Origin: Escherichia coli
GTDB taxonomy: Bacteria; Pseudomonadota; Gammaproteobacteria; Enterobacterales; Enterobacteriaceae
Length of the DNA stretch: 64,000 bases
Strand: one strand, 5' to 3'
Assembly: GCF_050920415.1 (NCBI RefSeq)
Contig: NZ_CP169309.1
Shown: in pieces, positions 1 to 63,849 of the stretch
Layout: the number at the start of each line of letters is the position of its first letter
How positions within the stretch are numbered: position 1 is the stretch's first letter
Position numbers and translations under genes: made by a program
Notes under the pieces: model-generated
What the model saw: the letters and a program-made list of their open reading frames with translations, nothing else
The model's database searches: none
Told to the model about the DNA's origin: nothing

Positions 1-1
1 C

Positions 2-820
2 CGTCTGAATATTTCGCAACCACCGCTAAGTCAGCAGATTCAGGCGCTGGAGCAACAAATTGGTGCCCGACTGCTGGCAAGGACCAATCGCAGTGTATTG
101 CTGACGGAAGCAGGAAAACAGTTTCTTGCAGATAGTCGGCAAATCCTGTCTATGGTGGATGACGCTGCCGCTCGCGCTGAAAGGCTGCATCAGGGCGAAG
201 CGGGGGAGTTGCGCATTGGTTTTACTTCGTCCGCTCCTTTTATTCGGGCGGTGTCCGATACGTTATCGCTGTTTCGTCGTGATTATCCCGATGTCCATTT
301 ACAAACCCGCGAAATGAACACTCGCGAGCAAATCGCTCCGCTCATTGAAGGAACGCTGGATATGGGATTGCTGCGTAACACAGCGTTACCGGAGACGCTT
401 GAACACGCAGTCATCGTCCATGAACCGCTTATGGCGATGATCCCGCACGATCATCCCCTGGCAAATAACCCGAGTGTAACGCTGGCTGAACTGGCGAAAG
501 AACCCTTTGTCTTTTTTGATCCGCACGTAGGGACAGGGCTGTATGACGATATTCTCGGGCTGATGAGACGTTACAATTTGACGCCCGTCATCACTCAGGA
601 GGTGGGTGAGGCAATGACCATCATCGGTCTGGTTTCCGCTGGTCTGGGTGTTTCAATTTTGCCTGCGTCATTTAAACGTGTTCAGCTCAACGAAATGCGC
701 TGGGTGCCGATTGCTGAAGAGGATGCGGTTTCTGAAATGTGGTTGGTCTGGCCGAAACACCATGAACAAAGTCCGGCTGCGCGTAACTTTCGTATTCATC
801 TGCTGAATGCTCTCAGGTGA
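2..820 (+). CDS. ynfL: LysR-family transcriptional regulator, 5'-partial (start lies upstream of window)
   Basis: ORF 98..820 continues in frame to the window edge; upstream in-frame translation gives a LysR HTH (LSQQIQALEQQIGARLLARTNRSVLLTEAG); synteny with mlc. Confidence 0.8.
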   Translation, partial: RLNISQPPLSQQIQALEQQIGARLLARTNRSVLLTEAGKQFLADSRQILSMVDDAAARAERLHQGEAGELRIGFTSSAPFIRAVSDTLSLFRRDYPDVHLQTREMNTREQIAPLIEGTLDMGLLRNTALPETLEHAVIVHEPLMAMIPHDHPLANNPSVTLAELAKEPFVFFDPHVGTGLYDDILGLMRRYNLTPVITQEVGEAMTIIGLVSAGLGVSILPASFKRVQLNEMRWVPIAEEDAVSEMWLVWPKHHEQSPAARNFRIHLLNALR

Positions 821-954
821 GGGAAATTTCAGCGAAAAAGCCCGAAAAATGTGCTGTTAATCACATGCCTAAGTAAAAATTTGACGACACGTATTGAAGT
901 GCTTCACCATAGCCTACAGATTATTTCGGAGCGCGAAAATATAGGGAGTATGCG

Positions 955-2175
955 GTGGTTGCTGAAAACCAGCCTGGGCACATTGATCAAATAAAGCAGA
1001 CCAACGCGGGCGCGGTTTATCGCCTGATTGATCAGCTTGGTCCAGTCTCGCGTATCGATCTTTCCCGTCTGGCGCAACTGGCTCCTGCCAGTATCACCAA
1101 AATTGTCCGTGAGATGCTCGAAGCACACCTGGTGCAAGAGCTGGAAATCAAAGAAGCGGGGAACCGTGGCCGTCCGGCGGTGGGGCTGGTGGTTGAAACT
1201 GAAGCCTGGCACTATCTTTCTCTGCGCATTAGTCGCGGGGAGATTTTCCTTGCTTTGCGCGATCTGAGCAGCAAACTAGTGGTGGAGGAGTCGCAGGAAC
1301 TGGCGTTAAAAGATGACTCGCCATTGTTGGATCGTATCATTTCCCATATCGATCAGTTTTTTATCCGCCATCAGAAAAAACTTGAGCGTCTGACTTCTAT
1401 TGCCATTACCTTGCCGGGAATTATTGATACGGAAAATGGTATTGTACATCGCATGCCGTTCTACGAGGATGTAAAAGAGATGCCGCTCGGCGAGGCGCTG
1501 GAGCAGCATACCGGCGTACCGGTTTATATTCAGCATGATATCAGCGCATGGACGATGGCTGAGGCTTTGTTTGGTGCCTCACGCGGGGCGCGCGATGTGA
1601 TTCAGGTGGTTATCGATCACAACGTGGGGGCGGGCGTCATTACCGATGGTCATCTGCTACACGCAGGCAGCAGTAGCCTCGTGGAAATAGGTCACACGCA
1701 GGTCGACCCGTATGGGAAACGCTGTTATTGCGGGAATCACGGCTGCCTCGAAACCATCGCCAGTGTGGACAGTATTCTTGAGCTGGCACAGCTGCGTCTC
1801 AATCAATCCATGAGCTCGATGTTACATGGACAGCCGTTAACCGTTGACTCATTGTGTCAGGCGGCATTGCGCGGCGATCTGCTGGCAAAAGACATCATTA
1901 CCGGGGTGGGCGCGCATGTCGGGCGCATTCTTGCCATCATGGTGAATTTATTTAACCCACAAAAAATACTGATTGGCTCACCGTTAAGTAAAGCGGCAGA
2001 TATCCTCTTCCCGGTCATCTCGGACAGCATCCGTCAGCAGGCCCTTCCTGCGTATAGTCAGCACATTAGCGTTGAGAGTACTCAGTTTTCTAACCAGGGT
2101 ACTATGGCAGGGGCTGCGCTGGTAAAAGACGCGATGTATAACGGTTCTTTGTTGATTCGTCTGTTGCAGGGTTAA
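955..2175 (+). CDS. mlc: Mlc (DgsA) ROK-family global repressor of PTS genes
   Basis: 406-aa ORF with GTG start; N-terminal HTH and ROK sugar-kinase-like fold with Cys-rich zinc motif (CYCGNHGC); recognised as E. coli Mlc. Confidence 0.95.
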   Translation: MVAENQPGHIDQIKQTNAGAVYRLIDQLGPVSRIDLSRLAQLAPASITKIVREMLEAHLVQELEIKEAGNRGRPAVGLVVETEAWHYLSLRISRGEIFLALRDLSSKLVVEESQELALKDDSPLLDRIISHIDQFFIRHQKKLERLTSIAITLPGIIDTENGIVHRMPFYEDVKEMPLGEALEQHTGVPVYIQHDISAWTMAEALFGASRGARDVIQVVIDHNVGAGVITDGHLLHAGSSSLVEIGHTQVDPYGKRCYCGNHGCLETIASVDSILELAQLRLNQSMSSMLHGQPLTVDSLCQAALRGDLLAKDIITGVGAHVGRILAIMVNLFNPQKILIGSPLSKAADILFPVISDSIRQQALPAYSQHISVESTQFSNQGTMAGAALVKDAMYNGSLLIRLLQG

Positions 2176-2299
2176 CATTTTTTAACTGTTCTACCAAAAT
2201 TTGCGCTATCTCAATTTGGGCCAGGAAAGCATAACTTAGACTTTCAAGGTTAATTATTTTCCTGGTTTATATTTGTGAAGCATAACGGTGGAGTTAGTG

Positions 2300-2995
2300 A
2301 TGCTGAAGCGTTTCTTTATTACCGGTACAGACACTTCTGTAGGGAAAACGGTGGTTTCCCGCGCATTGCTACAAGCGTTAGCCTCCCAGGGAAAAACGGT
2401 TGCGGGATATAAACCCGTAGCGAAGGGGAGCAAAGAGACACCCGAAGGGCTGCGTAATAAAGATGCCCTGGTGTTGCAGAGTGTTTCAACCATCGAACTG
2501 CCTTATGAAGCAGTTAATCCTATCGCGTTAAGCGAAGAAGAAAGTAGCGTGGCGCACAGTTGCCCAATCAATTACACCCTCATTTCAAACGGCCTGGCAA
2601 ACCTGACCGATAAAGTCGATCATGTCGTGGTAGAAGGGACTGGCGGCTGGCGCAGTCTGATGAATGATTTACGTCCGCTCTCTGAATGGGTGGTGCAGGA
2701 ACAACTGCCGGTGTTGATGGTTGTCGGTATTCAGGAAGGTTGCATTAACCATGCACTGCTGACAGCTCAGGCGATTGCCAACGACGGGCTGCCGCTCATT
2801 GGCTGGGTGGCTAACCGAATCAACCCAGGACTGGCGCATTATGCGGAAATCATTGATGTGCTGGGTAAAAAACTTCCAGCACCGCTCATTGGTGAACTGC
2901 CTTATTTACCGCGCGCCGAACAGCGTGAACTGGGGCAATACATCCGCTTAGCTATGCTGCGCAGTGTGCTGGCGGTAGATAGAGTCACGGTGTAA
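2300..2995 (+). CDS. ynfK: dethiobiotin synthetase paralog (BioD-like)
   Basis: 231 aa from ATG at residue 5 of ORF 2288..2995; P-loop GTDTSVGKT; GGAG 7 nt upstream. Confidence 0.9.
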
Positions 2996-4204
2996 CGTCC
3001 GCGAAATTACCGACGCAATTACGCAGGCAATCAATAAACCGGGGAGTAGCTGATACTCGCCGGTCATTTCACATATCATCAACGTCGACATAATCGGCGC
3101 GTGCGTGGTTGCCGCCAACAGTGTCGCCATCCCGGTTAATCCGAGTAAGAGTGTAATTTCTTCGCCGTCAGGAAACCATAACCCCAGGCTACGTCCATAC
3201 AACATGCCAATGGCAAGACCGATAAAGAGTGTCGGTGTAAACACACCACCAGGCGCGCCGGAACCGCTACTTGCCAGAACGGCAAACAGTTTGCAAAGGA
3301 AGATCCCGCCAATGATCATAAACAGTGGCGGGGCGGTTAAAAAGGATTGTACGGTGCTATAGCCGTTGCCCCACACGGCGGGGGTGAACAGGGAAAGCAG
3401 ACCCACGATCAACCCGCCGAGTGCCAGTTGCCAGGGGGGCGCAAGTTTGAGAATAACAAATCCTCGATGACTGGCGTTCATTAACGTTAACAACACTGGT
3501 CCGCATAGACCTGCCAGCACACCTGTACTGATAATCAGCGCATAGTCACGAGCCTGAACCGTCACTGAGAGTTGTACGCTGTAGAGTAACGCGTCGCTAT
3601 GATTAATCAGATTGCTAACCAGCAACGCCACGACGGCGGAAATAATCACCGGGCCGAGAGAGGCCAACATCATAGTGCCAAACAGCACTTCGGCTATAAA
3701 TAAACTGTCAGCAAGCGGGGCGCGGTAAGCCGCAGCCATTCCCGCCGCAGCTCCACAGGCAATCCATAATTTCCACTCCTGGCGTGGCGTAAAACGCTGA
3801 GCAAAACAGGAGGCGGCAAGGGCAGCTAAAAGAATCATCGCACCTTCGCGACCAATTGCGCTGCCGCTAGTTACTACCAGCAGAGAGGCAAGCGATTTAA
3901 CCAGGCTTGCTGCGTAATCGAATTTACCATCGGTTTGCAACGCTTCCATGTAATCGGTCGGCGCATGAGGGCGTTGCTGGGTAAATTTCTGCCAGCCCAT
4001 CAACAACAAACCCGCCGCCAGTCCGCCGAGCGCCGGAGTTAGCAGCCGTCGCCACGGAGAAAGATTCGTCGCTGCATTGACCAGACTGCCGGAGTCATTA
4101 TTGAGGAACAGCCATTCCAGTAGCAGCATCGCGTGACGAAACGCGGCAACGGCAAAGGCCGCAAGAATACCGACTATTGTTGCGATAAGCAGACGGCGAA
4201 ACAT
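2948..4204 (-). CDS. clcB: ClC-family voltage-gated chloride channel
   Basis: 418 aa from Met21 of ORF 2948..4264; multi-TM protein with ClC selectivity motifs (GSGIP-like, GREG); 3' end overlaps ynfK convergently. Confidence 0.9.
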
Positions 4205-5054: not shown

Positions 5055-5909
5055 TTAACCTGCAATAGCCATTCCTACTGTCATGTGCAGGCCATAAAAG
5101 AGCACACGCCCGATCATCTCACCGCCAAGTATGAGGATTAGCCCCAGAATAAGTCCGGCAACGTGAGGTTCGCGGCGACGAATGAGCGGGCAAAGCCAGC
5201 ATCCAAGACCTGCGCATAACAATACCACACGCCAGACCTGTAAGGAGGCGTAATCTGGTACCAGTGCGCTGGCTTGTTGCACGGATGAGTGAATAGACGC
5301 CAGAGACAAACCTTGCAGCACAATCACCCCGGCACAAGCGATCAGCGCCAGAACGCTAATGATGGCAAATGGTGTGGTATTAAATGTAACGCGAGCTGCC
5401 CGCAGAATTGCGGCAGCAAGTATTGGACCGCTCAACAATACCGTCAGGAAGAAAGCTAGCGTAGTGTAACCGTTATGCCAGGTTGGCACGGTGTCGATTT
5501 GATACACGCAGGTCATCATCCAGACGAAAATGACGCCGAGCGCCATGCTGACAAGTAACCAGAGTTTCCCCAACGCTTGCGGCATTTTACCGATGACCGC
5601 CACCAGCCACCATAGTCCGCCAACGGCAAAAAATATGGAACCGGCAGCAATCTCGTTACTCAGACCAGAAGCTCCGATTCGATTCAGCGAGTTAAACGCT
5701 CGCAGTGGCGATCCCAGGTGCATGACAGAGGCAATAAACCCGATGCCCATCAACAGCCAGAGGAAAAACATGCCACGGACAATACGCTGACGGTCTGCGT
5801 CATTTTTGGCGGCGAACCAGCCAATTCCGCTAACAATCAGCGCGCCTACTACGCATTGACCCAATACGGTAAAGATAACCAGTGGCCATTCATGCCATCC
5901 ATTTCCCAT
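5055..5909 (-). CDS. ynfH: DMSO-reductase-type membrane anchor subunit (DmsC paralog)
   Basis: 284 aa starting at internal MGNGWHEWPL of ORF 5055..6524; hydrophobic multi-TM protein. Confidence 0.85.
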   Translation of the reverse strand: MGNGWHEWPLVIFTVLGQCVVGALIVSGIGWFAAKNDADRQRIVRGMFFLWLLMGIGFIASVMHLGSPLRAFNSLNRIGASGLSNEIAAGSIFFAVGGLWWLVAVIGKMPQALGKLWLLVSMALGVIFVWMMTCVYQIDTVPTWHNGYTTLAFFLTVLLSGPILAAAILRAARVTFNTTPFAIISVLALIACAGVIVLQGLSLASIHSSVQQASALVPDYASLQVWRVVLLCAGLGCWLCPLIRRREPHVAGLILGLILILGGEMIGRVLFYGLHMTVGMAIAG

Positions 5910-24114: not shown

Positions 24115-24964
24115 AAGCACGGTGTTCGGGGTTTTTTATGAGCAGCAAGCTTCATGGTCTTGTCTGGGAAGGGTGCGCCTTCACCGGCATGATCTTATCC
24201 AGGGTGGCAGTAATGGCTCGCCTTGCAGACTACAGCAATGACGAAGGTGTGTCATGGCCTGCAGTGGAGACCATTCGTCGTCAGATTGGGGCAAAGAGTG
24301 AATCAACGGTTAAAGCGGCGATAGCGGAACTGGAAAAGAACGGCTGGCTGACGAAGGAGGAGCGTAAGGTCGGTGGGCGTAATGAAAGCAATATCTACCG
24401 CCTTAATGTGGAAAAACTCGAAGCAGCAGCTGAGGCGGCGCGTGAGGCATATAAACCGAAAAGAAAAATTAGCCCGGCAAAAAATGACCCGTTAACAGTT
24501 GACCAGTCAAATATTGCCCCCTCAACGGTTGACCCGTCAAATTTTGATGGATCAACCGTTGGTAAAAAACAGCCGGTTAGGGGGGCGATGGTTGGCCCCG
24601 ATCCGTCAGTATTAAAACCTGATCCGTCAGATAAAAGATCTTTTCGTCCGGAAGCTTCGCAACCGGACCCGCAGACGGCTGAACAGGATTTTTTAACCCG
24701 ACATCCTGATGCGGTTGTGTTTAGTGCAAAAAAACGTCAGTGGGGAACTCAGGAGGATTTGGCATGCGCACAGTGGATCTGGGGGCGAATCGTGAGTCTT
24801 TACGAACAGGCCGCCAGCGATGATGGCGAGATCACCCGACCGAAAGAACCCAACTGGACAGCATGGGCCAATGACGTGCGCATAATGCGGATGCTGGATG
24901 GCAGAACTCACAGACAAATCTGTGAACCGCCCCGGGTTTCCTGGAGAGTGTTTTATCTGTGAAC

Positions 24965-25831
24965 TCAGGCTGCCAGATCATTGTTTCCGATGGAAGCATA
25001 ATAAGCTTTTTCTGCTTCTGCCGGAGGAGTATGGCCCAGCCTTCCCAGCAATCGTCGATTGTTATACCAGTCCACCCACGTGAGTGTGGCCAGTTCCACT
25101 TCTGCACGGTTTTTCCAGCTCTTACGGTGTATTACCTCCGCTTTGTAAAGACCATTGATGCTCTCAGCCATCGCGTTGTCATACGAGTCGCCTGTACTCC
25201 CTGTTGATGCCAGCAGTTTTGCTTCTTTTAGTCGCTCCGTATAGGCCAGTGACACATACTGAGAGCCTTTATCGCTGTGATGGATGGTGCCAGACGGACG
25301 ACGGGCCCACAACGCCTGCTCCAGCGCATCCAGCACGAATGTCGTTTCCATAGACGATGAGACCCGCCACCCCACGATGTATCCGGCAAACACATCAATG
25401 ATGAACGCCACATAGACGAAGCCCTGCCATGTGCTGACGTAAGTAAAATCAGCCACCCACAGCTGGTCAGGACGTTCTGCCACGAACTGACGGTTTACGC
25501 GGTCACCTGTGGCAACGGTTTTCCGGCTGACGGTAGTGCGGACCTTTTTACCCCGGAGAACACCGGCAAGTCCCATAACCGCCATGAGGCGCGCCACTGT
25601 ACATCTGGCCACCCTGATTCCTTCCCGTAACAACTGACGCCAGACTTTACGCACACCGTACACCTGATGATTTTCATCGTATACGCGCTGTATCTCTCTC
25701 TTCAGCCAGTCATCGCGCTGCGCACGGGCACTGCGTTTATCAGGATGATGCCGCTGCTGCTGACAATGGTAATACGTTGACGGGGCAATATGCAGTTCAC
25801 TGCATACCGGTCCGACCCCCGTACTGCTCAC
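24965..25831 (-). CDS. IS3-family transposase OrfB (DDE integrase domain)
   Basis: 288-aa ORF with DDE catalytic region; expressed as OrfAB by -1 frameshift. Confidence 0.85.
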   Translation of the reverse strand: MSSTGVGPVCSELHIAPSTYYHCQQQRHHPDKRSARAQRDDWLKREIQRVYDENHQVYGVRKVWRQLLREGIRVARCTVARLMAVMGLAGVLRGKKVRTTVSRKTVATGDRVNRQFVAERPDQLWVADFTYVSTWQGFVYVAFIIDVFAGYIVGWRVSSSMETTFVLDALEQALWARRPSGTIHHSDKGSQYVSLAYTERLKEAKLLASTGSTGDSYDNAMAESINGLYKAEVIHRKSWKNRAEVELATLTWVDWYNNRRLLGRLGHTPPAEAEKAYYASIGNNDLAA

Positions 25832-25852
25832 GCAGCTTATCCAGCAGTGGCA

Positions 25853-26179
25853 TTATTTTTTCCAGAGGCGGTCGAACTCCGCCTTCGCAAAATAAGCGGA
25901 AGCCTGGCGAAGGATATCGTTACTGCGGCGCAGTTCACGATTTTCACGTTCCAGCTCTTTCAGACGCTGACGTTCAGCGGTGGTGAGCCCACCATCACCG
26001 CTCCCGGTATCCCTCTCATGCTGGCGAACCCAGACACGCAGAGTCTCTGGCGTACAGCCAATCTTTGGAGCAATGGAACAAATTGCCGCCCATTGTGAGT
26101 CATATTCGCCCTGACTTTCCAGAACCATACGAACTGCGCGTTGACGGACTTCGGGGGAAAAACGAGTATTTTTAGTCAT
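25853..26179 (-). CDS. IS3-family transposase OrfA (HTH and leucine zipper)
   Basis: 108 aa, [19 protein letters not shown]...; recognised IS629-type OrfA. Confidence 0.85.
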
Positions 26180-26454
26180 CCTGTTTACCTCTTTCTCAGG
26201 AAGTTTAGTCTCCAGGATTTCCGGGGCGGTTCACTGCGAAATGTTTGGTCGGGTACAGCGGGATCCATTCTGGGTAAAAAACATCATGAGCCCGTCAAAA
26301 CTTCGCGATAAATGGGATGAGCTGGTTATCCGTCTGGGGCGTTCGCCTGTACAGCGTTGTGTGAATCATATTTCTGAACCTGACACCGAAATTCCACCAG
26401 GGTTCAGGGGGTAGGTATTGATTTCAGATCATGAGGTAATTTTCAGGAGGACTT

Positions 26455-39562: not shown

Positions 39563-39726
39563 TTCAAAAAACGAAAGAACGGAGGTACGTATGTACGCAC
39601 TGAAAAAGATTACGGTAACTGAAGATGGTCGTCAGTAGACTGGCCCCCTGAATCTCCAGACAACCAGTATCACTTAAATAAGTGATAGTCTTAATACTAG
39701 TTTTTAGACTAGTCATTGGAGAACAG

Positions 39727-40092
39727 ATGATTGATGTCTTAGGGCCGGAGAAACGCAGACGGCGTACCACACAGGAAAAGATCGCAATTGTTCAGCAGAG
39801 CTTTGAACCGGGGATGACGGTCTCCCTCGTTGCCCGGCAACATGGTGTAGCAGCCAGCCAGTTATTTCTCTGGCGTAAGCAATACCAGGAAGGAAGTCTT
39901 ACTGCTGTCGCCGCCGGAGAACAGGTTGTTCCTGCCTCTGAACTTGCTGCCGCCATGAAGCAGATTAAAGAACTCCAGCGCCTGCTCGGCAAGAAAACGA
40001 TGGAAAATGAACTCCTCAAAGAAGCCGTTGAATATGGACGGGCAAAAAAGTGGATAGCGCACGCGCCCTTATTGCCCGGGGATGGGGAGTAA
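39727..40092 (+). CDS. insC: IS2 transposase InsC (OrfA)
   Basis: 121 aa from [18 protein letters not shown]...; recognised IS2 InsC. Confidence 0.9.
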
Positions 40093-40955
40093 GCTTAGTC
40101 AGCCGTTGTCTCCGGGTGTCGCGTGCGCAGTTGCACGTCATTCTCAGACGAACCGATGACTGGATGGATGGCCGCCGCAGTCGTCACACTGATGATACGG
40201 ATGTGCTTCTCCGTATACACCATGTTATCGGAGAGCTGCCCACGTATGGTTATCGTCGGGTATGGGCGCTGCTTCGCAGACAGGCAGAACTTGATGGTAT
40301 GCCTGCAATCAATGCCAAACGTGTTTACCGGATCATGCGCCAGAATGCGCTGTTGCTTGAGCGAAAACCTGCTGTACCGCCATCGAAACGGGCACATACA
40401 GGCAGAGTGGCCGTGAAAGAAAGCAATCAGCGATGGTGCTCTGACGGGTTCGAGTTCTGCTGTGATAACGGAGAGAGACTGCGTGTCACGTTCGCGCTGG
40501 ACTGCTGTGATCGTGAGGCACTGCACTGGGCGGTGACTACTGGCGGCTTCAACAGTGAAACAGTACAGGACGTCATGCTGGGAGCGGTGGAACGCCGCTT
40601 CGGCAACGATCTTCCGTCGTCTCCAGTGGAGTGGCTGACGGATAATGGTTCATGCTACCGGGCTAATGAAACACGCCAGTTCGCCCGGATGTTGGGACTT
40701 GAACCGAAGAACACGGCGGTGCGGAGTCCGGAGAGTAACGGAATAGCAGAGAGCTTCGTGAAAACGATAAAGCGTGACTACATCAGTATCATGCCCAAAC
40801 CAGACGGGTTAACGGCAGCAAAGAACCTTGCAGAGGCGTTCGAGCATTATAACGAATGGCATCCGCATAGTGCGCTGGGTTATCGCTCGCCACGGGAATA
40901 TCTGCGGCAGCGGGCTTGTAATGGGTTAAGTGATAACAGATGTCTGGAAATATAG
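40050..40955 (+). CDS. insD: IS2 transposase InsD (OrfB, DDE)
   Basis: 301-aa ORF; recognised IS2 InsD; overlaps insC for -1 frameshift fusion. Confidence 0.9.
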
Positions 40956-41236
40956 GGGCAAATCCAGTCAGGTTGAGGAAGTGCATGTCCTGGGGGGATA
41001 TGTATCGTATGGAGTTTTACCCGCGTAATACCCATCTGGCAGCAAAAATTGAGTATTGCCGGAACGGGAATATTTCATGTTTGCAGGTAGAGAAAACGGA
41101 TGAGGCTTATATCACTACGCTGAACGGCGATACGATGTCAGCGCCAATGATATAAGACAGTAATTCACCATTTGGATTGTCCGCTCCACCCAACATGTTG
41201 TTTCCTTAAGGTTCCTACACCACAAAGGGAACACTC

Positions 41237-43202
<1,966 letters not shown>

Positions 43203-44920: not shown

Positions 44921-45125
44921 AGCGGGTTTTCGCTATTTACGAGTTTTTTTGAGGTGATGGTTGTTGTTTTATCGTTTGATATATCTACTTGATAAGTAAT
45001 AAGAAAGAAAAATAAACACAACAACCTGATGATCTTTCTTATACGAAAAAGCATGTAAAATCAGAGGGTTTTACAAAAAACGTGGTTGTTGTATTGCTTT
45101 TTTGCCGGTGGTTTATGGAGGGGCT

Positions 45126-45603
45126 GTGGCCTTTTTATTGAATAAAAGCGACATGGCCTCCTCCATCGGTATCTCAGTACAGGCATTTGATAAATGGGGT
45201 GTTCCTCCTGTTGAGCGCCGGGGGAGAGAGGTTTTCTATGACGTTAAAACTGTACTGGAGATAGATCGCGAGCGACGTCAACAAAACCAGAAATCTTCAG
45301 GTGGTGAAAATGATCTTGAGGAAAGGCTACTTCAGGCCAGGGTTAACCTGACGGAAGAACAGGCTATTGCTCAGCGGTTAAAAAACCAGGTTGCAGAGCA
45401 TAAGGTGATTGATACAGCTTTCTCTATTTTTGCCCTGTCCCGGTTATCCGGAGAACTGGCATCTGTTTTGGACAGTATTCCGCTTTCGATGCAAAGAAAA
45501 TTCCCTGAATTGACAGGCAGACAATTGGCTTATCTAAAAGAGCTGGTTGCGAAGGGGGCTAATAAATGCGTTGAGTCCGCTGAAAAAATGAAGGAATTTG
45601 CGG

Positions 45604-45632
<29 letters not shown>
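45126..45632 (+). CDS. nu1: terminase small subunit (Nu1-like)
   Basis: ORF 45102..45632; central and C-terminal region aligns with lambda Nu1 (...TAFSIFALSRLSGELASVLDSIPLSMQRKFPEL); start uncertain (GTG 45126, TTG 45138 or ATG 45153). Confidence 0.8.
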
Positions 45633-49310
<3,678 letters not shown>

Positions 49311-49330
<20 letters not shown>

Positions 49331-50630
49331 TCTCCCGCATATTGCCAGCATGGCCTTTAATGAGCCGCTGATGCTTGAACCCGCCTATGCGCGGGTTTTC
49401 TTTTGTGCGCTAGCAGGCCAGCTTGGGATCAGCCGCCTGACAGATGCGGTGTCCGGTGACAGCCTGACTGCCCCGGAGACACCCGCGACGCTGGCGTTAT
49501 CTGGTGATGATGACGGACCACGACAGGCCCGCAGTTATCAGGTCATGAACGGCATCGCCGTGCTGCCGGTTTCCGGCACGCTGGTCAGCCGGACGCGGGC
49601 GCTGCAGCCGTATTCGGGGATGACCGGTTACAACGGCATTATCGCCCGTCTGCAACAGGCTGCCAGCGATCCGATGGTGGACGGCATTCTGCTCGATATG
49701 GACACGCCCGGCGGGATGGTGGCGGGGGCATTTGACTGCGCTGACATCATCGCCCGTGTGCGTGACATAAAACCGGTATGGGCGCTTGCCAACGACATGA
49801 ACTGCAGTGCAGGTCAGTTGCTTGCCAGTGCCGCTTCCCGGCGTCTGGTCACGCAGACCGCCCGGACAGGCTCCATCGGCGTCATGATGGCTCACAGCAA
49901 TTACGGTGCAGCGCTGGAGAAACAGGGCGTGGAAATCACGCTGATTTACAGCGGCAGCCATAAGGTGGATGGCAACCCCTACAGCCATCTTCCGGATGAC
50001 GTCCGGGAAACACTGCAGTCCCGGATGGATGCAACCCGCCAGATGTTTGCGCAGAAAGTGTCGGCATATACCGGCCTGTCCGTGCAGGCTGTGCTGGATA
50101 CCGAGGCTGCAGTGTACAGCGGTCAGGAGGCCATTGATGCCGGACTGGCTGATGAACTTGTTAACAGTACCGATGCGATCACCGTCATGCGTGATGCACT
50201 GGATACACGTAAATCCCGTCTCTCAGGAGGGCGAATGACCAAAGAGACTCAATCAACAACTGTTTCAGCCACTGCTTCGCAGGCTGACGTTACTGGCGTG
50301 GTGCAAGCGACGGAGGGCGAGAACGCCAGCGCTGCGCAGCCGGACGTGAACGCGCAGATCACCGCAGCGGTTGCGGCAGAAAACAGTCGCATTATGGGGA
50401 TCCTCAACTGTGAGGAGGCTCACGGACGCGAAGAACAGGCATGCGTGCTGGCCGAAACCCCCGGTATGACCGTGGAAACGGCCCGCCGTATTCTGGCCGC
50501 AGCACCACAGAGTGCACAGGCGCGCAGTGACACTGCGCTGGATCGTCTGATGCAGGGGGCACCGGCGCCGCTGGCTGCAGGTAACCCGGCATCTGATGCC
50601 GTTAACGATTTGCTGAACACACCAGTGTAA
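49311..50630 (+). CDS. C: head maturation protease / scaffold C
   Basis: 439 aa from GTG (VTAELRNLPHIASMAF...) with GAGGAGG RBS; S49 ClpP-like protease fold. Confidence 0.9.
50025..50630 (+). CDS. nu3: scaffolding protein Nu3 (in-frame C-terminal portion of C)
   Basis: In-frame internal ATG (MDATRQMF...) as in lambda, where nu3 shares the 3' end of C. Confidence 0.55.
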   Translation: MDATRQMFAQKVSAYTGLSVQAVLDTEAAVYSGQEAIDAGLADELVNSTDAITVMRDALDTRKSRLSGGRMTKETQSTTVSATASQADVTGVVQATEGENASAAQPDVNAQITAAVAAENSRIMGILNCEEAHGREEQACVLAETPGMTVETARRILAAAPQSAQARSDTALDRLMQGAPAPLAAGNPASDAVNDLLNTPV

Positions 50631-50639
50631 GGGATGTTT

Positions 50640-50972
50640 ATGACGAGCAAAGAAACCTTTACCCATTACCAGCCGCTGGGCAACAGTGACCCGGCTCATA
50701 CCGCAACCGCGCCCGGCGTATTGAGTGCGAAAGCGCCTGCAATGACCCCGCTGATGCTGGACACCTCCACCCGTAAGCTGGTTGCGTGGGATGGCACCAC
50801 CGACGGTGCTGCCGTTGGCATTCTTGCAGTTGCTGCTGACCAGACCAGCACCACACTGACGTTCTACAAGTCCGGCACGTTCCGTTATGAGGATGTGCTC
50901 TGGCCGGAGGCTGCCAGCGACGAGACGAAAAAACGGACCGCGTTTGCCGGAACGGCAATCAGCATCGTTTAA
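50640..50972 (+). CDS. D: head decoration protein D
   Basis: 110 aa, [26 protein letters not shown]... Confidence 0.9.
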
Positions 50973-51027
50973 CTTTACCCTTCATCACTAAAGGCCGCCT
51001 GTGCGGCTTTTTTTACGGGATTTTTTT

Positions 51028-54603: not shown

Positions 54604-55028
54604 ATGTTCCTGAAAACCGAATCATTTGAACATAACGGTGTGACCGTCACGCTTTCTGAACTGTCAGCCCTGCAGCGCATTGAGCATCTCGCCCTGATGA
54701 AACGGCAGGCAGAACAGGCGGAGTCAGACAGCAACCGGAAGTTTACTGTGGAAGACGCGCCATCAGAACCGGCGCGTTTCTGGTGGCGATGTCCCTGTGG
54801 CATAACCATCCGCAGAAGACAAAGCTGCCGTCCATGAATGAAGCCGTTAAACAGATTGAGCAGGAAGTGCTTACCACCTGGCCCACGGAGGCAATTTCTC
54901 ATGCTGAAAACGTGGTGTACCGGCTGTCTGGTATGTATGAGTTTGTGGTGAATAATGCCCCTGAACAGACAGAGGACGCCGGGCCCGCAGAGCCTGTTTC
55001 TGCGGGAAAGTGTTCGACGGTGAGCTGA
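54604..55028 (+). CDS. G: tail assembly chaperone G, disrupted by an apparent 2-bp insertion frameshift
   Basis: ORF 54604..54837 matches lambda G to ...FTVEDA then diverges; ORF 54783..55028 in the +2 frame matches the rest (AMSLWHNHPQ...KCSTVS); removing 2 bp near 54756-54760 restores EDAIRTGAFLVAMSLW. Confidence 0.8.
55004..55010 (+). promoter_or_regulatory. programmed -1 ribosomal frameshift slippery site GGGAAAG for the G-T fusion
   Basis: Heptamer GGGAAAG at the end of G, overlapping the start of the T frame, as in lambda. Confidence 0.6.
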
Positions 55029-55444: not shown

Positions 55445-57998
55445 ACCGGTAGGCGATCTGGTCGTTGATTTAAGTCTGGATGCGGCCAGATTTGACGAGC
55501 AGATGGCCAGAGTCAGGCGTCATTTTTCCGGTACGGAAAGTGATGCGAAAAAAACAGCGGCAGTCGTTGAACAGTCGCTGAGCCGACAGGCGCTGGCTGC
55601 ACAGAAAGCGGGGATTTCCGTCGGGCAGTATAAAGCCGCCATGCGTATGCTGCCTGCACAGTTCACCGACGTGGCCACGCAGCTTGCAGGCGGGCAAAGT
55701 CCGTGGCTGATCCTGCTGCAACAGGGGGGGCAGGTGAAGGACTCCTTCGGCGGGATGATCCCCATGTTCAGGGGGCTTGCCGGTGCGATCACCCTGCCGA
55801 TGGTGGGGGCCACCTCGCTGGCGGTGGCGACCGGTGCGCTGGCGTATGCCTGGTATCAGGGCAACTCAACCCTGTCCGATTTCAACAAAACGCTGGTCCT
55901 TTCCGGCAATCAGTCGGGTCTGACGGCAGATCGCATGCTGGTCCTGTCCAGAGCCGGGCAGGCGGCAGGGCTGACGTTTAACCAGACCAGCGAGTCACTC
56001 AGCGCACTGGTTAAGGCGGGGGTAAGCGGTGAGGCTCAGATTGCGTCCATCAGCCAGAGTGTGGCGCGTTTCTCCTCTGCATCCGGCGTGGAGGTGGACA
56101 AGGTCGCTGAAGCCTTCGGGAAGCTGACCACAGACCCGACGTCGGGGCTGACGGCGATGGCACGCCAGTTCCATAACGTGACGGCGGAGCAGATTGCGTA
56201 TGTTGCTCAGTTGCAGCGTTCCGGCGATGAAGCCGGGGCATTGCAGGCGGCGAACGAGGCCGCAACGAAAGGGTTTGATGACCAGACCCGCCGCCTGAAA
56301 GAGAACATGGGCACGCTGGAGACCTGGGCAGACAGGACTGCGCGGGCCTTCAAATCCATGTGGGATGCGGTGCTGGATATTGGTCGTCCTGATACCGCGC
56401 AGGAGATGCTGATTAAGGCAGAGGCTGCGTTTAAGAAAGCAGACGACATCTGGAATCTGCGCAAGGATGATTATTTTGTTAACGATGAAGCGCGGGCGCG
56501 TTACTGGGATGATCGTGAAAAGGCCCGTCTTGCGCTTGAAGCCGCCCGAAAGAAGGCTGAGCAGCAGACTCAACAGGACAAAAATGCGCAGCAGCAGAGC
56601 GATACCGAAGCGTCACGGCTGAAATATACCGAAGAGGCGCAGAAGGCTTACGAACGGCTGCAGACGCCGCTGGAGAAATATACCGCCCGTCAGGAAGAAC
56701 TGAACAAGGCACTGAAAGACGGGAAAATCCTGCAGGCGGATTACAACACGCTGATGGCGGCGGCGAAAAAGGATTATGAAGCGACGCTGAAAAAGCCGAA
56801 ACAGTCCGGCGTGAAGGTGTCTGCGGGCGATCGTCAGGAAGACAGTGCTCATGCTGCCCTGCTGACGCTTCAGGCAGAACTCCGGACGCTGGAGAAGCAT
56901 GCCGGAGCGAATGAGAAAATCAGCCAGCAGCGCCGGGATTTGTGGAAGGCAGAAAGTCAGTTCGCGGTACTGGAGGAGGCGGCACAACGTCGCCAGCTGT
57001 CCGCACAGGAGAAATCCCTGCTGGCGCATAAAGATGAGACGCTGGAGTACAAACGCCAGCTGGCTGCACTTGGCGACAAGGTTACGTATCAGGAGCGCCT
57101 GAACGCGCTGGCGCAGCAGGCGGATAAATTCGCACAGCAGCAACGGGCAAAACGGGCCGCCATTGATGCGAAAAGCCGGGGGCTGACTGACCGGCAGGCA
57201 GAACGGGAAGCCACGGAACAGCGCCTGAAGGAACAGTATGGCGATAATCCGCTGGCGCTGAATAACGTCATGTCAGAGCAGAAAAAGACCTGGGCGGCTG
57301 AAGACCAGCTTCGCGGGAGCTGGATGGCAGGCCTGAAGTCCGGCTGGAGTGAGTGGGAAGAGAGCGCCATGGACAGTATGTCGCAGGTAAAAAGTGCAGC
57401 CACGCAGACCTTTGATGGTATTGCACAGAATATGGCGGCGATGCTGACCGGCAGTGAGCAGAACTGGCGCAGCTTCACCCGTTCCGTGCTGTCCATGATG
57501 ACAGAAATTCTGCTTAAGCAGGCAATGGTGGGGATTGTCGGGAGTATCGGCAGCGCCATTGGCGGGGCTGTTGGTGGCGGCGCATCCGCGTCAGGCGGTA
57601 CAGCCATTCAGGCCGCTGCGGCGAAATTCCATTTTGCAACCGGAGGATTTACGGGAACCGGCGGCAAATATGAGCCAGCGGGGATTGTTCACCGTGGTGA
57701 GTTTGTCTTCACGAAGGAGGCAACCAGCCGGATTGGCGTGGGGAATCTCTACCGGCTGATGCGCGGCTATGCCACCGGTGGTTATGTCGGTACACCGGGC
57801 AGTCTGGCTGACAGCCGGTCGCAGGCGTCCGGGACGTTTGAGCAGAATAACCATGTGGTGATTAACAACGAAGGCACGAACGGGCAGATAGGGCCACAGG
57901 CGCTGAAGGCGGTTTATGACGTAGCCCGTAAGGCGGCAATGGATGTTGTGACCGGGCAGATGCGCGATGGTGGTCTGTTCTCCGGAGGTGGACGATGA
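55437..57998 (+). CDS. H: tail tape measure protein H
   Basis: 853 aa, lambda H-like. Confidence 0.95.
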   Translation: MAEPVGDLVVDLSLDAARFDEQMARVRRHFSGTESDAKKTAAVVEQSLSRQALAAQKAGISVGQYKAAMRMLPAQFTDVATQLAGGQSPWLILLQQGGQVKDSFGGMIPMFRGLAGAITLPMVGATSLAVATGALAYAWYQGNSTLSDFNKTLVLSGNQSGLTADRMLVLSRAGQAAGLTFNQTSESLSALVKAGVSGEAQIASISQSVARFSSASGVEVDKVAEAFGKLTTDPTSGLTAMARQFHNVTAEQIAYVAQLQRSGDEAGALQAANEAATKGFDDQTRRLKENMGTLETWADRTARAFKSMWDAVLDIGRPDTAQEMLIKAEAAFKKADDIWNLRKDDYFVNDEARARYWDDREKARLALEAARKKAEQQTQQDKNAQQQSDTEASRLKYTEEAQKAYERLQTPLEKYTARQEELNKALKDGKILQADYNTLMAAAKKDYEATLKKPKQSGVKVSAGDRQEDSAHAALLTLQAELRTLEKHAGANEKISQQRRDLWKAESQFAVLEEAAQRRQLSAQEKSLLAHKDETLEYKRQLAALGDKVTYQERLNALAQQADKFAQQQRAKRAAIDAKSRGLTDRQAEREATEQRLKEQYGDNPLALNNVMSEQKKTWAAEDQLRGSWMAGLKSGWSEWEESAMDSMSQVKSAATQTFDGIAQNMAAMLTGSEQNWRSFTRSVLSMMTEILLKQAMVGIVGSIGSAIGGAVGGGASASGGTAIQAAAAKFHFATGGFTGTGGKYEPAGIVHRGEFVFTKEATSRIGVGNLYRLMRGYATGGYVGTPGSLADSRSQASGTFEQNNHVVINNEGTNGQIGPQALKAVYDVARKAAMDVVTGQMRDGGLFSGGGR

Positions 57999-58324
57999 AA
58001 ACCTTCCGCTGGAAAGTGAAACCCGGTATGGATGTGGCTTCGGCCCCTTCCGTCAGGAAGGTGCGCTTTGGTGATGGCTATTCCCAGCGTGCGCCTGCCG
58101 GGCTGAATGCCGACCTGAAAACGTACAGTGTGACGCTTTCCGTGACCCGGGAGGAGGCCCGGCATCTGGAGTCGTTTCTGGCAGAGCACGGGGGCTGGAA
58201 GGCCTTTCTGTGGACGCCGCCTTATGGTTACAGGCAGATAAAGGTGACCTGCGCAAAATGGTCGTCGCAGGTCAGTATGTTGCGTGTTGAGTTCAGCGCA
58301 GAGTTTAAACAGGTGGTGAACTGA
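57995..58324 (+). CDS. M: tail tip protein M
   Basis: 109 aa. Confidence 0.9.
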   Translation: MKTFRWKVKPGMDVASAPSVRKVRFGDGYSQRAPAGLNADLKTYSVTLSVTREEARHLESFLAEHGGWKAFLWTPPYGYRQIKVTCAKWSSQVSMLRVEFSAEFKQVVN

Positions 58325-59022
58325 TGCAGGATATCCGGCAGGAAACACTGAATGAATGCACCCGTGCGGAGCAGTCGGCCAGCGTGGTGCTCTGGGAAAT
58401 CGATCTGACAGAGGTCGGTGGAGAACGTTATTTTTTCTGTAATGAGCAGAACGAAAAAGGTGAGCCGGTCACCTGGCAGGGGCGACAGTATCAGCCGTAT
58501 CCCATTCAGGGGACGGGATTTGAACTGAACGGCAAGGGCAGTGCTGCCCGTCCGACACTGACGGTCTCTAACCTGTACGGCATGGTCACCGGGATGGCGG
58601 AAGATCTGCAGAGTCTGGTTGGCGGAACGGTGGTCCGGCGTAAGGTTTACGCCCGTTTTCTGGATGCGGTGAACTTCGTCAACGGAAACAGAGACGCCGA
58701 TCCGGAGCAGGAGGTGATCAGCCGCTGGCGCATCGAGCAGTGCAGCGAACTGAGCGCGGTGAGTGCCTCCTTTGTACTGTCCACGCCGACGGAAACGGAT
58801 GGCGCTGTTTTTCCGGGACGTATCATGCTGGCCAACACCTGCACCTGGACCTATCGCGGTGACGAGTGCGGTTATAGCGGTCCGGCTGTCGCGGATGAAT
58901 ATGACCAGCCAACGTCCGATATCACGAAGGATAAATGCAGCAAATGCCTGAGCGGTTGTAAGTTCCGCAATAACGTCGGCAACTTTGGCGGCTTCCTTTC
59001 CATTAACAAACTTTCGCAGTAA
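58324..59022 (+). CDS. L: tail tip protein L
   Basis: 232 aa; C-terminal Cys cluster. Confidence 0.95.
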   Translation: MQDIRQETLNECTRAEQSASVVLWEIDLTEVGGERYFFCNEQNEKGEPVTWQGRQYQPYPIQGTGFELNGKGSAARPTLTVSNLYGMVTGMAEDLQSLVGGTVVRRKVYARFLDAVNFVNGNRDADPEQEVISRWRIEQCSELSAVSASFVLSTPTETDGAVFPGRIMLANTCTWTYRGDECGYSGPAVADEYDQPTSDITKDKCSKCLSGCKFRNNVGNFGGFLSINKLSQ

Positions 59023-60310: not shown

Positions 60311-60370
60311 TGCAAAATGTTTTATGTGAAACCGCCTGCGGGCGGTTTTATCGTTTATGGAGCGTGAGGA

Positions 60371-63300
60371 ATGGGTAAAGGCAGCAGTAAGGGGCATACC
60401 CCGCGCGAAGCGAAGGACAACCTGAAGTCCACGCAGCTGCTGAGTGTGATCGATGCCATCAGCGAAGGGCCGGTTGAAGGTCCGGTGGATGGATTAAAAA
60501 GCGTGCTGCTGAACAGTACACCTGTGCTGGACAGTGAGGGGAATACCAATATCTCCGGCGTCACGGTGGTGTTCCGGCCGGTGAGCAGGAGCAGACACCG
60601 CCGGAGGGGTTTGAATCCTCCGGCTCCGAGACGGTGCTGGGTACGGAAGTGAAATACGACACGCCGATCACCCGCACCATTACGTCTGCAAACATCGACC
60701 GTCTGCGCTTTACCTTCGGTGTACAGGCACTGGTGGAAACCACCTCAAAGGGTGACAGGAATCCGTCGGAAGTCCGCCTGCTGGTTCAGATACAACGTAA
60801 CGGTGGCTGGGTGACGGAAAAGGACATCACCATTAAGGGTAAAACCACTTCACAGTATCTGGCCTCGGTGGTGGTGGATAACCTGCCGCCGCGCCCGTTC
60901 AGTATCCGGATGCGCAGGATGACGCCGGACAGCACCACAGACCAGCTGCAGAACAAAACGCTCTGGTCGTCATACACTGAAATCATCGATGTGAAACAGT
61001 GCTACCCGAACACGGCACTGGTTGGCGTACAGGTGGACTCGGAACAGTTCGGCAGTCAGCAGGTGAGCCGTAATTATCATCTGCGCGGGCGCATTCTGCA
61101 GGTGCCGTCGAACTATAACCCGCAGACGCGGCAATACAGCGGTATCTGGGACGGAACGTTTAAACCGGCATACAGCAACAACATGGCCTGGTGTCTGTGG
61201 GATATGCTGACCCATCCGCGCTACGGCATGGGGAAACGTCTTGGTGCGGCGGATGTGGATAAATGGGCGCTGTATGTCATCGGCCAGTACTGCGACCAGT
61301 CAGTGCCGGACGGCTTTGGTGGCACGGAGCCGCGCATCACCTGTAATGCGTACCTGACCACACAGCGCAAGGCGTGGGATGTGCTCAGTGATTTCTGCTC
61401 GGCGATGCGCTGTATGCCGGTATGGAACGGGCAGACGCTGACGTTCGTGCAGGACCGACCGTCGGATAAGGTGTGGACCTATAACCGCAGTAATGTGGTG
61501 ATGCCGGATGATGGCGCGCCGTTCCGCTACAGCTTCAGCGCCCTGAAGGACCGCCATAATGCCGTTGAGGTGAACTGGATTGACCCGGACAACGGCTGGG
61601 AGACGGCGACAGAGCTTGTTGAAGATACGCAGGCCATTGCCCGTTACGGTCGTAATGTCACGAAGATGGATGCCTTTGGCTGTACCAGCCGGGGGCAGGC
61701 ACACCGCGCCGGGCTGTGGCTGATTAAAACGGAACTGCTGGAGACGCAGACCGTGGATTTCAGCGTGGGTGCTGAAGGGCTTCGCCATGTACCGGGCGAT
61801 GTCATTGAAATCTGCGATGATGACTATGCCGGTATCAGCACCGGTGGTCGCGTGCTGGCGGTGAACAGCCAGACCCGGACGCTGACGCTCGACCGTGAAA
61901 TCACGCTGCCATCCTCCGGTACCACGCTGATAAGCCTGGTTGACGGAAGTGGCAATCCGGTCAGCGTGGAGGTTCAGTCCGTCACCGACGGCGTGAAGGT
62001 AAAAGTGAGCCGTGTTCCTGACGGTGTTGCTGAATACAGCGTATGGGGGCTGAAGCTGCCGACGCTGCGCCAGCGACTGTTCCGCTGCGTGAGTATCCGT
62101 GAGAACGACGACGGCACGTATGCCATCACCGCCGTGCAGCATGTGCCGGAAAAAGAGGCCATCGTGGATAACGGGGCGCACTTTGACGGCGAACAGAGTG
62201 GCACGGTGAATGGTGTCACGCCGCCAGCGGTGCAGCACCTGACCGCAGAAGTCACTGCAGACAGCGGGGAATATCAGGTGCTGGCGCGCTGGGACACGCC
62301 GAAGGTGGTGAAGGGCGTGAGCTTCCTGCTTCGCCTGACCGTGGCAGCGGATGACGGCAGTGAGCGGCTGGTCAGCACGGCCCGGACGACGGAAACAACA
62401 TACCGCTTCAGGCAGCTGGCGCTGGGGCGGTACACGCTGACAGTCCGGGCGGTAAATGCGTGGGGGCAGCAGGGCGATCCGGCATCGGTATCGTTCCGGA
62501 TTGCCGCACCGGCAGCGCCGTCGCGGATTGAGCTGACGCCGGGCTATTTTCAGATAACCGCCACGCCGCATCTTGCGGTTTATGACCCGACGGTACAGTT
62601 TGAGTTCTGGTTCTCGGAAAAGCGGATTACCGATATCAGGCAGGTTGAAACCACAGCCCGCTATCTTGGTACGGCGCTGTACTGGATAGCCGCCAGTATC
62701 AATATCAAACCGGGCCATGATTATTACTTTTATATCCGCAGTGTGAACACCGTTGGCAAATCGGCATTCGTGGAGGCTGTTGGTCAGCCGAGTGATGATG
62801 CTTCCGGCTATCTGGATTTTTTCAAAGGAGTGATAGGGAAAACACACCTGGCTCAGGAGCTGTGGACGCAGATTGATAACGGTCAGCTTGCGCCTGACCT
62901 GGCTGAAATCAGGACGTCCATTACGGATGTCAGCAATGAAATCACACAGACCGTCAATAAGAAACTGGAAGACCAGAGTGCAGCGATCCAGCAGATACAG
63001 AAGGTTCAGGTTGATACAAATAATAACCTGAACAGCATGTGGGCTGTGAAGCTGCAGCAGATGCAGGACGGACGCCTTTATATCGCGGGTATCGGTGCCG
63101 GTATTGAGAACACCCCTGACGGCATGCAGAGTCAGGTGCTGCTGGCGGCGGACAGGATTGCGATGGTTAATCCTGCGAATGGCAACACAAAACCGATGTT
63201 TGTTGGTCAGGGCGATCAGATATTCATGAACGACGTGTTCCTGAAGCGCCTGACGGCCCCCACCATTACCAGCGGCGGCAATCCCCCGGCCTTTTCCCTG

Positions 63301-63849
63301 ACACCAGACGGAAAGCTGACCGCTAAAAATGCGGATATCAGTGGCAGTGTGAATGCGAACGCCGGGACGCTCAATAATGTCACGATTAATGAGAACTGTC
63401 AGATTCTGGGGAAACTGTCAGCTAATCAGATTGAAGGCGATATTGTTAAAACGGTGGGTAAGGCTTTCCCCCGTGACTCCCGGGCACCGGAGCGGTGGCC
63501 GTCAGGGACCATTACCGTCAGGGTTTATGACGATCAGCCTTTTGACCGGCAAATTGTCATTCCGGCGGTGGCATTCAGCGGTGCCAGACATGAGAGAGAG
63601 CATAATGACATTTATTCATCATGCCGTCTGATAGTGCGGAAAAACGGTGCTGAAATTTATAACCGTACCGCGCTGGATAATACGCTGATTTATACCGGTG
63701 TGATTGATATGCCAGCGGGTCGCGGTCACATGACGCTGGAGTTTTCGGTATCAGCGTGGCTGGTGAATGACTGGTATCCCACGGCAAGCATCAGCGATTT
63801 GCTGGTTGTGGTGATGAAGAAATCCACAGCCGGTATCAGTATCAGCTGA
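60371..63849 (+). CDS. J: tail tip/host-specificity protein J, with apparent 1-bp deletion frameshift near codon 70 and a divergent C-terminal receptor-binding region
   Basis: ORF 60371..60652 matches lambda J to ...VTVVFR then goes out of frame; ORF 60634..63849 matches the remainder; restoring one G in the GG run near 60574-60580 gives ...[28 protein letters not shown]; last 200-250 aa differ from lambda J. Confidence 0.85.

Follow-up and report, generated by a model that had tools for sequence, protein, structure and literature searches.

Within the 64,000 nucleotides of Escherichia coli DNA that we analysed (the window), positions 60371-63849 (+) carry gene J, the tail-tip (host-recognition or tip attachment) gene of a lambda-like prophage, and its reading frame is interrupted. 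Is this interruption a real mutation, would any J protein still be made across it, and which receptor would the undamaged protein recognize? The prophage is integrated at the Qin site of the E. coli chromosome, between rspB and ydfJ, and gene mapping together with the annotation of the syntenic locus shows J following H-M-L-K-I in the tail operon and preceding the side tail fibre gene.

One nucleotide is missing from gene J

The initial annotation of the window had proposed that J lost 1 bp near codon 70 and that the lambda-like sequence then resumes in another frame, and both points are borne out. The lesion lies just after codon 69, at 60575-60577 (+), where all relatives read GGG and are intact while the window reads GG, a single G having been lost. 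When the window was aligned with the nearest genome and across the whole prophage, the lone gap fell at 60575/60576 (TTCC-GGCC in the window vs TTCCGGGCC).

Frame 0 opens normally, with a Shine-Dalgarno-like TGAGGA (60365-60370, +; read from the sequence) ahead of the J ATG. Upstream of this, between I and J, is a terminator-like G+C-rich hairpin with a T run (60329..60349, +; AAACCGCC TGC GGGCGGTTTT; read from the sequence), which we take to be present in lambda too. The frame ends at a TGA after 93 codons, 69 of them authentic and 24 out of frame; in the open reading frame (ORF) listing, the match of this short ORF to lambda J holds through residue 69 (...GVTVVFR) before the frame is lost. 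The resulting 93-aa 5′ fragment (60371..60652, +; ORF listing) matches positions 1-71 of the NCBIfam lambda_TipJ profile (E = 1.5e-37). Codons 70-1159 resume in the -1 frame downstream of the lesion, and the remainder of the gene, comprising most of codon 70 through codon 1159 and the stop, was traced to 60578..63849 (+) from the ORF listing, tblastn, NCBIfam and Pfam. By tblastn, residues 70-1159 are recovered in the window at 100% identity. Although the -1 frame is open from 60538, its earliest possible start codon is a GTG at 60634, giving a long ORF of 1071 aa (60634..63849) that bears the rest of J and scores 2196 bits over positions 90-1163 of NF049904 lambda_TipJ, above the curated cut-off of 1950 bits.

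The window J resembles lambda gpJ (P03749; PDB 8IYK, 8XCG-8XCK) in its position after M-L-K-I, in its Pfam order and in the lower segment of its central fibre. Its Pfam domains follow one another as FNIII-A_GpJ, Phage-tail_3, Ig_J, Ig_J_second, Phage_Tail_Tip and Ig_GpJ_C (every E < 1e-30), and the lambda-type arrangement of hub, FNIII/Ig, tail-tip fibre and C-terminal Ig-like receptor-binding domain is retained. Unlike lambda gpJ, however, it has the 1-bp deletion, and the uninterrupted reading frame of a lambda-type J is lacking, as frame 0 ends at 60652.

The undamaged allele is common and the deletion is private

Restoring one G to the window J yields a 1159-aa protein identical to WP_086251841.1, and since the repaired DNA matches nine independent assemblies at 3480/3480 nt, the frameshift cannot be attributed to chance. 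The intact form occurs naturally and is common, at least 42 contig blocks carrying it; at the ten places shown, tail fibre genes and ydfI lie downstream, with ydfJ called in five of the ten. Among RefSeq complete genomes the nearest is strain MFDS1022581 (best match at 99.9%). The deleted allele was absent from 5,426 complete E. coli genomes: our search with an 81-nt query spanning the lesion site returned 5,666 homologous places in 3,485 of these genomes, and the best matches were all 82 nt long. Exact look-ups of the 93-aa fragment and of the 1071-aa ORF (with either V or M first) found no record. Truncated products shared with other assemblies would have proven the mutation real; none is on record, and clonal inheritance of the frameshift was thus not demonstrable.

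A change seen in one sequence only may equally arise as a sequencing, assembly or polishing error, in which case the strain really has the intact 1159-aa allele, and we consider this a serious possibility, if somewhat short of an even chance. The loss affects a short homopolymer and is confined to one sequence, J is otherwise base-for-base equal to nine other assemblies, and the truncated products have left no trace in the records. Moreover, the three candidate private indels (in istA, G and J) all lie within a 23-kb late region that is multi-copy in such genomes, where errors in the consensus are the likeliest, each genome having several copies of it (6 J-like places in the nearest genome). 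This prophage in the nearest RefSeq genome also bears frameshifts of its own, flagged by PGAP, so indel differences between assemblies are frequent here, and the source assembly is outside the RefSeq complete genomes, which may mean lower quality. Against an error, GGG is a short run for homopolymer miscalling, and the other 38 kb common to the window and MFDS1022581 contain zero indels. The other private lesion in a tail gene is also of a different kind. Tail assembly chaperone gene G (54604-55028) is frameshifted at codon 52 by a private duplication of CG (54756..54757, +; GACGCC to GACGCGCC), for which no full-length match was found in complete genomes, the best-ranked places each being 2 nt short. 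This 2-bp duplication is not a homopolymer-type error but is typical of replication slippage. Finally, two private IS insertions in the same prophage are undeniably real, so its decay is in progress.

Taken with these insertions, we lean, slightly beyond an even chance, towards J being a real pseudogene of a decayed Qin-site lambda-like prophage, one whose undamaged allele is common and of the OmpC type. The deletion would then be biological rather than an assembly error, and the G would most likely have been lost very recently, via replication slippage, in a prophage no longer needing its tail genes. In either case the locus is an ordinary one, a pseudogene or a sequencing error in an already known OmpC-type J, and only reads discriminate between the two. 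The finding has little import outside annotation, where gene callers will report J as two 'proteins' of 93 aa and 1071 aa or label it a pseudogene.

The prophage is defective independently of J

Three insertion sequences interrupt the prophage. An IS3-family element of 1.31 kb (24927..26233, -), presumably IS629-like, splits a replication O-like gene, and an IS2 (39636..40966, +) lies just downstream of the endolysin gene; neither is in the nearest genome. The third, an IS21 with istA and istB (41237..43202, +), sits between the lysis and packaging genes and is common to the nearest genome, and its istA ORF stops early in the window, at 42283. None of these elements, nor the G frameshift, had been recorded in the initial annotation. 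Given the three IS elements, one of them in a replication gene, and the frameshifted gene G, it is not the J lesion that disables the prophage, which is already dead independently of it and is to be scored as defective.

Expression across the lesion

If the deletion is real, ribosomes starting at the normal ATG would halt after 93 codons, and the remaining 1090 codons would be left without a usable start of their own. No functional J trimer would be expected to form, because it is through its N-terminal hub part that the trimer enters the M/L/K/I tail-tip complex, and we infer that no J is made. Reinitiation at GTG 60634 was considered and rejected: inspection found no Shine-Dalgarno sequence 5-12 nt upstream of it, and the sole strong GGAGG (60603-60607) precedes a TTG in the dead frame.

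A real frameshift might also be bypassed by low-rate -1 slippage in the 60538-60652 overlap, which would yield some nearly full-length J and make this a leaky allele. With the downstream frame open throughout the overlap, a slip into the -1 frame at any point before 60650 would link both parts of J, a heptamer of the X XXY YYZ form (G GGT TTG) lies in phase at 60607-60613, and the virion needs only three copies of J. We nevertheless regard such a bypass as very improbable. An in-phase heptamer within 38 codons has a chance of about 0.15 by our own estimate, the slippery heptamer is not enriched (6 observed vs 10.6 expected), and no stimulatory RNA structure was found downstream of it (fold z = -0.69). 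GGT TTG is not known to slip efficiently in E. coli. J is a single ORF in every relative, so there is no conserved recoding site; the slippage product would contain about 10 wrong residues, and since gene G is broken too, tails could not assemble anyway. A programmed -1 frameshift, as in lambda G/GT, was likewise set aside: the RNA downstream lacks such a structure, and the relatives do not share the two-frame arrangement.

Divergence from lambda J

Residues 1-800 of J are 92-100% identical to lambda J, in agreement with the near-identical central part described initially. The hub and the fibronectin-like domains are of the lambda kind. The divergence that had been placed in the last 200-250 residues is real, but alignment to lambda shows that it spans about 355 residues and forms two blocks. 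The first covers residues of about 805-950 (62782..63219, +; alignment to lambda), which correspond to the alpha-helical shaft plus the upper end of the central straight fibre (domain names from PMC11101478). Here identity to lambda drops to 28-58%, and the window J is a net 27 residues longer. Phage 21 and many other phages align through this block without a break (query 1-3099 in one piece); the helical shaft of the window J is of the longer, phage-21 type.

Between the two blocks lies a conserved segment of the lower central straight fibre (residues 951-1001; 63220..63372, +) that is 98% identical to lambda, and the junction of published chimeric gpJ proteins (lambda residue 964) falls within it (PMC11338833, methods). 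The second block is the receptor-binding domain (residues 1002-1159; 63373..63846, +; Pfam Ig_GpJ_C, E = 1.5e-37). Identity to lambda over residues 1001-1159 is 32-58% in windows of 50 residues and 45% for the whole 158-residue domain, and the last variable segment differs by an indel of one residue.

Lineage and likely receptor of the J domain

Alignment of the C-terminus to other J proteins assigns it to the VT1-Sakai / gpJ-1A2 lineage. Receptor-binding domain identity is 94% to PhiR55_1, 93% to VT1-Sakai J and 93% to gpJ 1A2 (whose sequence was taken from the PMC11338833 supplement, a PDF that contained machine-reading errors), vs 68% to phage 21, 66% to A8 and 45% to lambda. Relative to 1A2, an engineered chimera (Brodel et al., Nature 2024, PMC11338833), the window domain has no indels and 11 substitutions in 158 residues, and both its identity and its equal loop lengths place it in this lineage rather than with the LamB-binding lambda-type domain and its four receptor-contact loops L1-L4. 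Between 1A2 and VT1-Sakai, domain identity is 99%. Roughly one in three complete E. coli genomes carries a J of the VT1-Sakai type, and the window J type ranks with the commonest of E. coli prophages, lambda J being the unusual one.

The best match of solved structure is PDB 9wca ('A8 gpJ', E = 1.8e-111). A8 (PDB 9wca/9wcb) and phage 21 J have the same fold as the window domain and are near-identical to it over its first 30 and last 20 residues, but they differ from it by two loop lengths and reach only 66-68% identity. Similarity at this level does not predict the receptor, because A8 gpJ binds OmpC (PMC11338833) whereas phage 21 natively binds LamB, one mutation enabling it to use OmpC (PMC11336670). 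The A8 and phage 21 receptor-binding domains are 82% identical, and given that two such close domains differ in receptor and that a single mutation switches phage 21, specificity cannot be read from identity alone. As a rule of thumb for gpJ receptor-binding domains, a tested domain informs on the receptor only if it is nearly identical, 82% spanning both LamB and OmpC binders.

In the lineage of the window J, dependence on OmpC was shown for 1A2 itself, which delivers DNA to cells lacking lamB only if they are given a suitable OmpC and is selective for OmpC variants, the EDL933 type working and the K-12 OmpC not being used efficiently (PMC11338833). By homology, the receptor of the window J is probably the porin OmpC and not LamB, with the caveat that 93% identity leaves 11 substitutions; LamB binding would not be expected at 45% identity to lambda. 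The swapped receptor-binding domain and non-LamB receptor suggested at first are thus supported by homology, and receptor or host-range predictions for J proteins of the window type would point to OmpC rather than LamB. Elsewhere in the literature, siphophage phi330 requires OmpC (EHEC phage paper), the sole paper that we found on PhiR55/PhiR47 covers dependence on inner-membrane ManYZ and not an outer-membrane receptor, and a 2026 receptor-prediction preprint leaves out lambda-type J domains.

Two functional temperate phages, PhiR55_1 (PV340571) and vB_EcoS-640R1, match the window J over its full length, shaft and receptor-binding domain included, with 95-96% of nucleotides identical; their J genes are intact and their phage backbones are different. 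Both form plaques, which shows that the window J type works when intact. VT1-Sakai J (Stx1 prophage, Sp15, AP000400) offers a precedent of another kind, as it too is annotated as a 'truncated protein by a mutation'.

As sequenced, gene J is interrupted by a single missing base

The tail-tip gene J of this lambda-like prophage shows a frameshift of one base that is private to this sequence, whether real or an artefact, and the prophage that carries it, at the Qin site, is already defective. Nothing about the gene is new in kind: the J allele is a common one, with a receptor-binding domain that matches an experimentally characterised OmpC-binding type. Open reading frames, the NCBIfam profile lambda_TipJ and Pfam domains agree that 60371-63849, the span proposed in the initial annotation, is exactly gene J. 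The ORF list and raw sequence place the J ATG at 60371 with TGAGGA directly 5′. From there a short ORF encodes 69 J residues ending in GVTVVFR, followed by 24 other residues and a stop at 60650-60652, and the ORF list gives a second, long ORF at 60634-63849 (1071 codons, GTG start, C-terminal end STAGISIS). The short ORF covers lambda_TipJ positions 1-71 and the long ORF positions 90-1163, the latter scoring 2196 bits, above the cut-off of 1950, and the long ORF also contains the full gpJ series of Pfam domains (FNIII-A_GpJ, Phage-tail_3, Ig_J, Ig_J_second, Phage_Tail_Tip and Ig_GpJ_C).

When the 3479-nt J sequence was searched against MFDS1022581 (NZ_CP169399.1), the nearest complete E. coli genome, the match spanned 3480 nt at 99.9% identity. 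Only two differences were found base by base: a gap at 60575/60576 (GTGTTCC-GGCCGG versus GTGTTCCGGGCCGG) and a synonymous A/C difference at 62076. Re-inserting one G yields a 1159-codon ORF whose product is identical to WP_086251841.1, the intact J of MFDS1022581. Both the G thought to be missing from a G run after residue 69 and the resumption of J in another frame are thus borne out. The downstream frame, which opens at 60538, offers its earliest start codon at 60634 (GTG). Because inspection of the raw sequence revealed no suitably spaced Shine-Dalgarno motif for this GTG, J as written would in all likelihood give a 93-residue fragment and nothing else.

Ribosomes slipping by -1 at any point in 60538-60650 would reunite the two J frames, and one X XXY YYZ heptamer lies in phase there (G GGT TTG, 60607-60613). 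We rejected this site as a recoding signal: the downstream RNA folds no better than shuffled sequences (z = -0.69), the window shows no enrichment of the heptamer (6 versus 10.6 expected), and all relatives encode J in a single frame. We also observed a 515-codon antisense ORF inside J (61300-62847, minus strand); long antisense ORFs are frequent opposite G+C-rich coding sequence. The space between I and J holds a terminator-like G+C-rich hairpin with a T run (60329-60349, AAACCGCC-TGC-GGGCGGTTTT), presumably the same element as in lambda.

The prophage carries several other lesions

The window runs from the E. coli chromosome (ynfE/F, clcB, rspA/B) into a lambdoid prophage, whose integrase adjoins rspB, and on through to J; in relatives, the far end of the prophage is a truncated ydfJ, marking the Qin site. 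The window is collinear with MFDS1022581 and near-identical to it except for two additional insertions. The first, a 1.31-kb IS3-family element on the minus strand (24927-26233) that we take to be IS629-like, is missing from the otherwise identical prophage of MFDS1022581 and splits a replication O-like gene into pieces at 24138-24926 and 26217-26411 (residues 1-263 and 253-320). Copies of this element, called 'IS3 family transposase' by PGAP, occur at 99.9% identity in E. coli isolates from crows and cattle, and one copy adjoins katP on a plasmid. The second, an IS2 at 39636-40966, is likewise absent from MFDS1022581; it closely follows the endolysin gene and separates the lysis genes from an IS21 (istA/istB, 41237-43202) that both genomes share between their lysis and packaging modules. 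The two IS21 copies differ by three 1-bp indels (42039, 42257 and 42492); the istA ORF of the window stops early at 42283, and the MFDS1022581 IS21 copies are flagged as frameshifted.

Compared one by one, all prophage genes are identical or full-length apart from J, the split replication gene and G (54604-55028), in which a CG duplicated at 54756-54757 (GACGCC to GACGCGCC) causes a frameshift at codon 52. A search of complete E. coli genomes gave no full-length match to this G allele, the best-ranked places each being 2 nt short. G and its frameshift product GT are tail assembly chaperones, and the duplication would abolish both, so that the tail pathway would be blocked twice, at G and at J. 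Judged from its genes, the prophage is dead, with the J lesion one of several and not the disabling one.

Outside J, all 130 mismatches to MFDS1022581 fall in two patches, 45000-51000 (terminase to protease) and 57000-58400 (end of H through M), the second of which includes a compensating pair of 1-bp indels (58159 and 58165); elsewhere the prophage is identical. The pattern resembles recombination with other lambdoid prophages. In the window the portal gene (47729-49330) is intact, and in MFDS1022581 it is frameshifted.

The deletion is private to this sequence

With an 81-nt query centred on the deletion site, homologous sequence was located at 5,666 places, spread over 3,485 of the 5,426 complete E. 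coli genomes. No place matched the deleted allele exactly; the best were all 82 nt long, at 98.8% identity, and read GGG. Neither truncated J product was found by exact-sequence look-up in an index of 153 billion genes. The repaired 1159-residue J occurs in at least 42 contig blocks and, in the ten matches listed, is followed by tail-fibre genes and ydfI, with a ydfJ call in five of them. With one G restored, the window J is identical at 3480 of 3480 DNA positions to nine of ten fetched assemblies. The allele is thus unaltered but for the deletion, which is either a mutation of very recent origin or an error confined to this sequence.

We lean slightly towards a real mutation. The two IS insertions are indisputably real private lesions of the same prophage, the companion lesion in G is a dinucleotide duplication rather than a homopolymer miscall, and the other 38 kb common to the window and MFDS1022581 contain no indel; a J pseudogene also has a precedent in the Stx1 prophage VT1-Sakai, whose J is annotated as 'truncated protein by a mutation' (AP000400.1). 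An artefact of the sequence is nonetheless a serious possibility, as the loss of one base from a G run was observed a single time, and in a multi-copy, near-identical region (6 J-like places in MFDS1022581, median 3 per genome) of the kind where polishing errors concentrate. The RefSeq assembly of MFDS1022581 has PGAP-flagged frameshifts of its own in the same prophage.

The receptor-binding domain points to OmpC

Scored per 50 residues, J is 92-100% identical to lambda J over residues 1-800, falls to 44%, 28% and 58% over 801-950 (with a net 27 extra residues), returns to 98% over 951-1000 and drops again to 58%, 44%, 32% and 50% over 1001-1159. In the domain terms of a cryo-EM study of the lambda tail with LamB, where the alpha-helical shaft is lambda 809-861 (PMC11101478), the first divergent block comprises this shaft and the uppermost central straight fibre, while the conserved stretch corresponds to the lower fibre and the second block to the Ig-like receptor-binding domain. 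The initial annotation was right that the C-terminus diverges, but its 'last 200-250 residues' underestimated an extent that is also bipartite. Phage 21 and many other phages align without a break across the shaft block (query nt 1-3099 as a single alignment, ~95%); in this block lambda is the rarer type.

A tblastn search with the last 165 J residues returned 56 phage records at 90-95% identity, among them long-tailed Stx1a and Stx2a phages, VT1-Sakai, Stx2a_WGPS2, PPompW prophages, JLK-2012, P-EibA and the plaque-forming phages PhiR55_1, 2G7b and vB_EcoS-640R1; phage 21 matched at 65%. The last 470 nt of J have a match of at least 90% in ~1,860 complete-genome records; this tip is among the commonest in E. 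coli. The best solved-structure match was 9wca, 'A8 gpJ 713' (E = 1.8e-111), with lambda J ranking below. A8 and 1A2 are engineered proteins in which natural C-termini were fused at residue 964 of lambda J; they came from a selection on cells lacking lamB and were assayed on cells lacking ompC that had been complemented with OmpC variants (PMC11338833). A8 uses OmpC of both K-12 and EDL933, whereas 1A2 uses the EDL933 type and many natural variants but not, efficiently, K-12 OmpC (PMC11338833).

Over the 158-residue domain (residues 1002-1159), the window J is 93% identical to 1A2 (11 substitutions), whose DNA in the paper's supplement was machine-read with errors and aligned to the window protein in a frameshift-tolerant manner. 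It is 93% identical to VT1-Sakai, 94% to PhiR55_1, 66% to A8, 68% to phage 21 and 45% to lambda. The machine-read 1A2 is itself 99% identical to VT1-Sakai, whose J is the one annotated as truncated. The alignment to other J proteins called for initially thus assigns the domain to the 1A2/VT1-Sakai lineage, whose tested member uses OmpC, and the proposal of a swapped domain with a receptor other than LamB seems essentially right. On these sequence comparisons, OmpC is probably the receptor of the window J. Some caution comes from A8, an OmpC binder, and phage 21, natively a LamB binder, which are yet 82% identical in this domain; phage 21 gains OmpC use by a single J mutation (PMC11336670). The 11 substitutions relative to 1A2 could confer another range of OmpC variants or, less probably, use of another porin.
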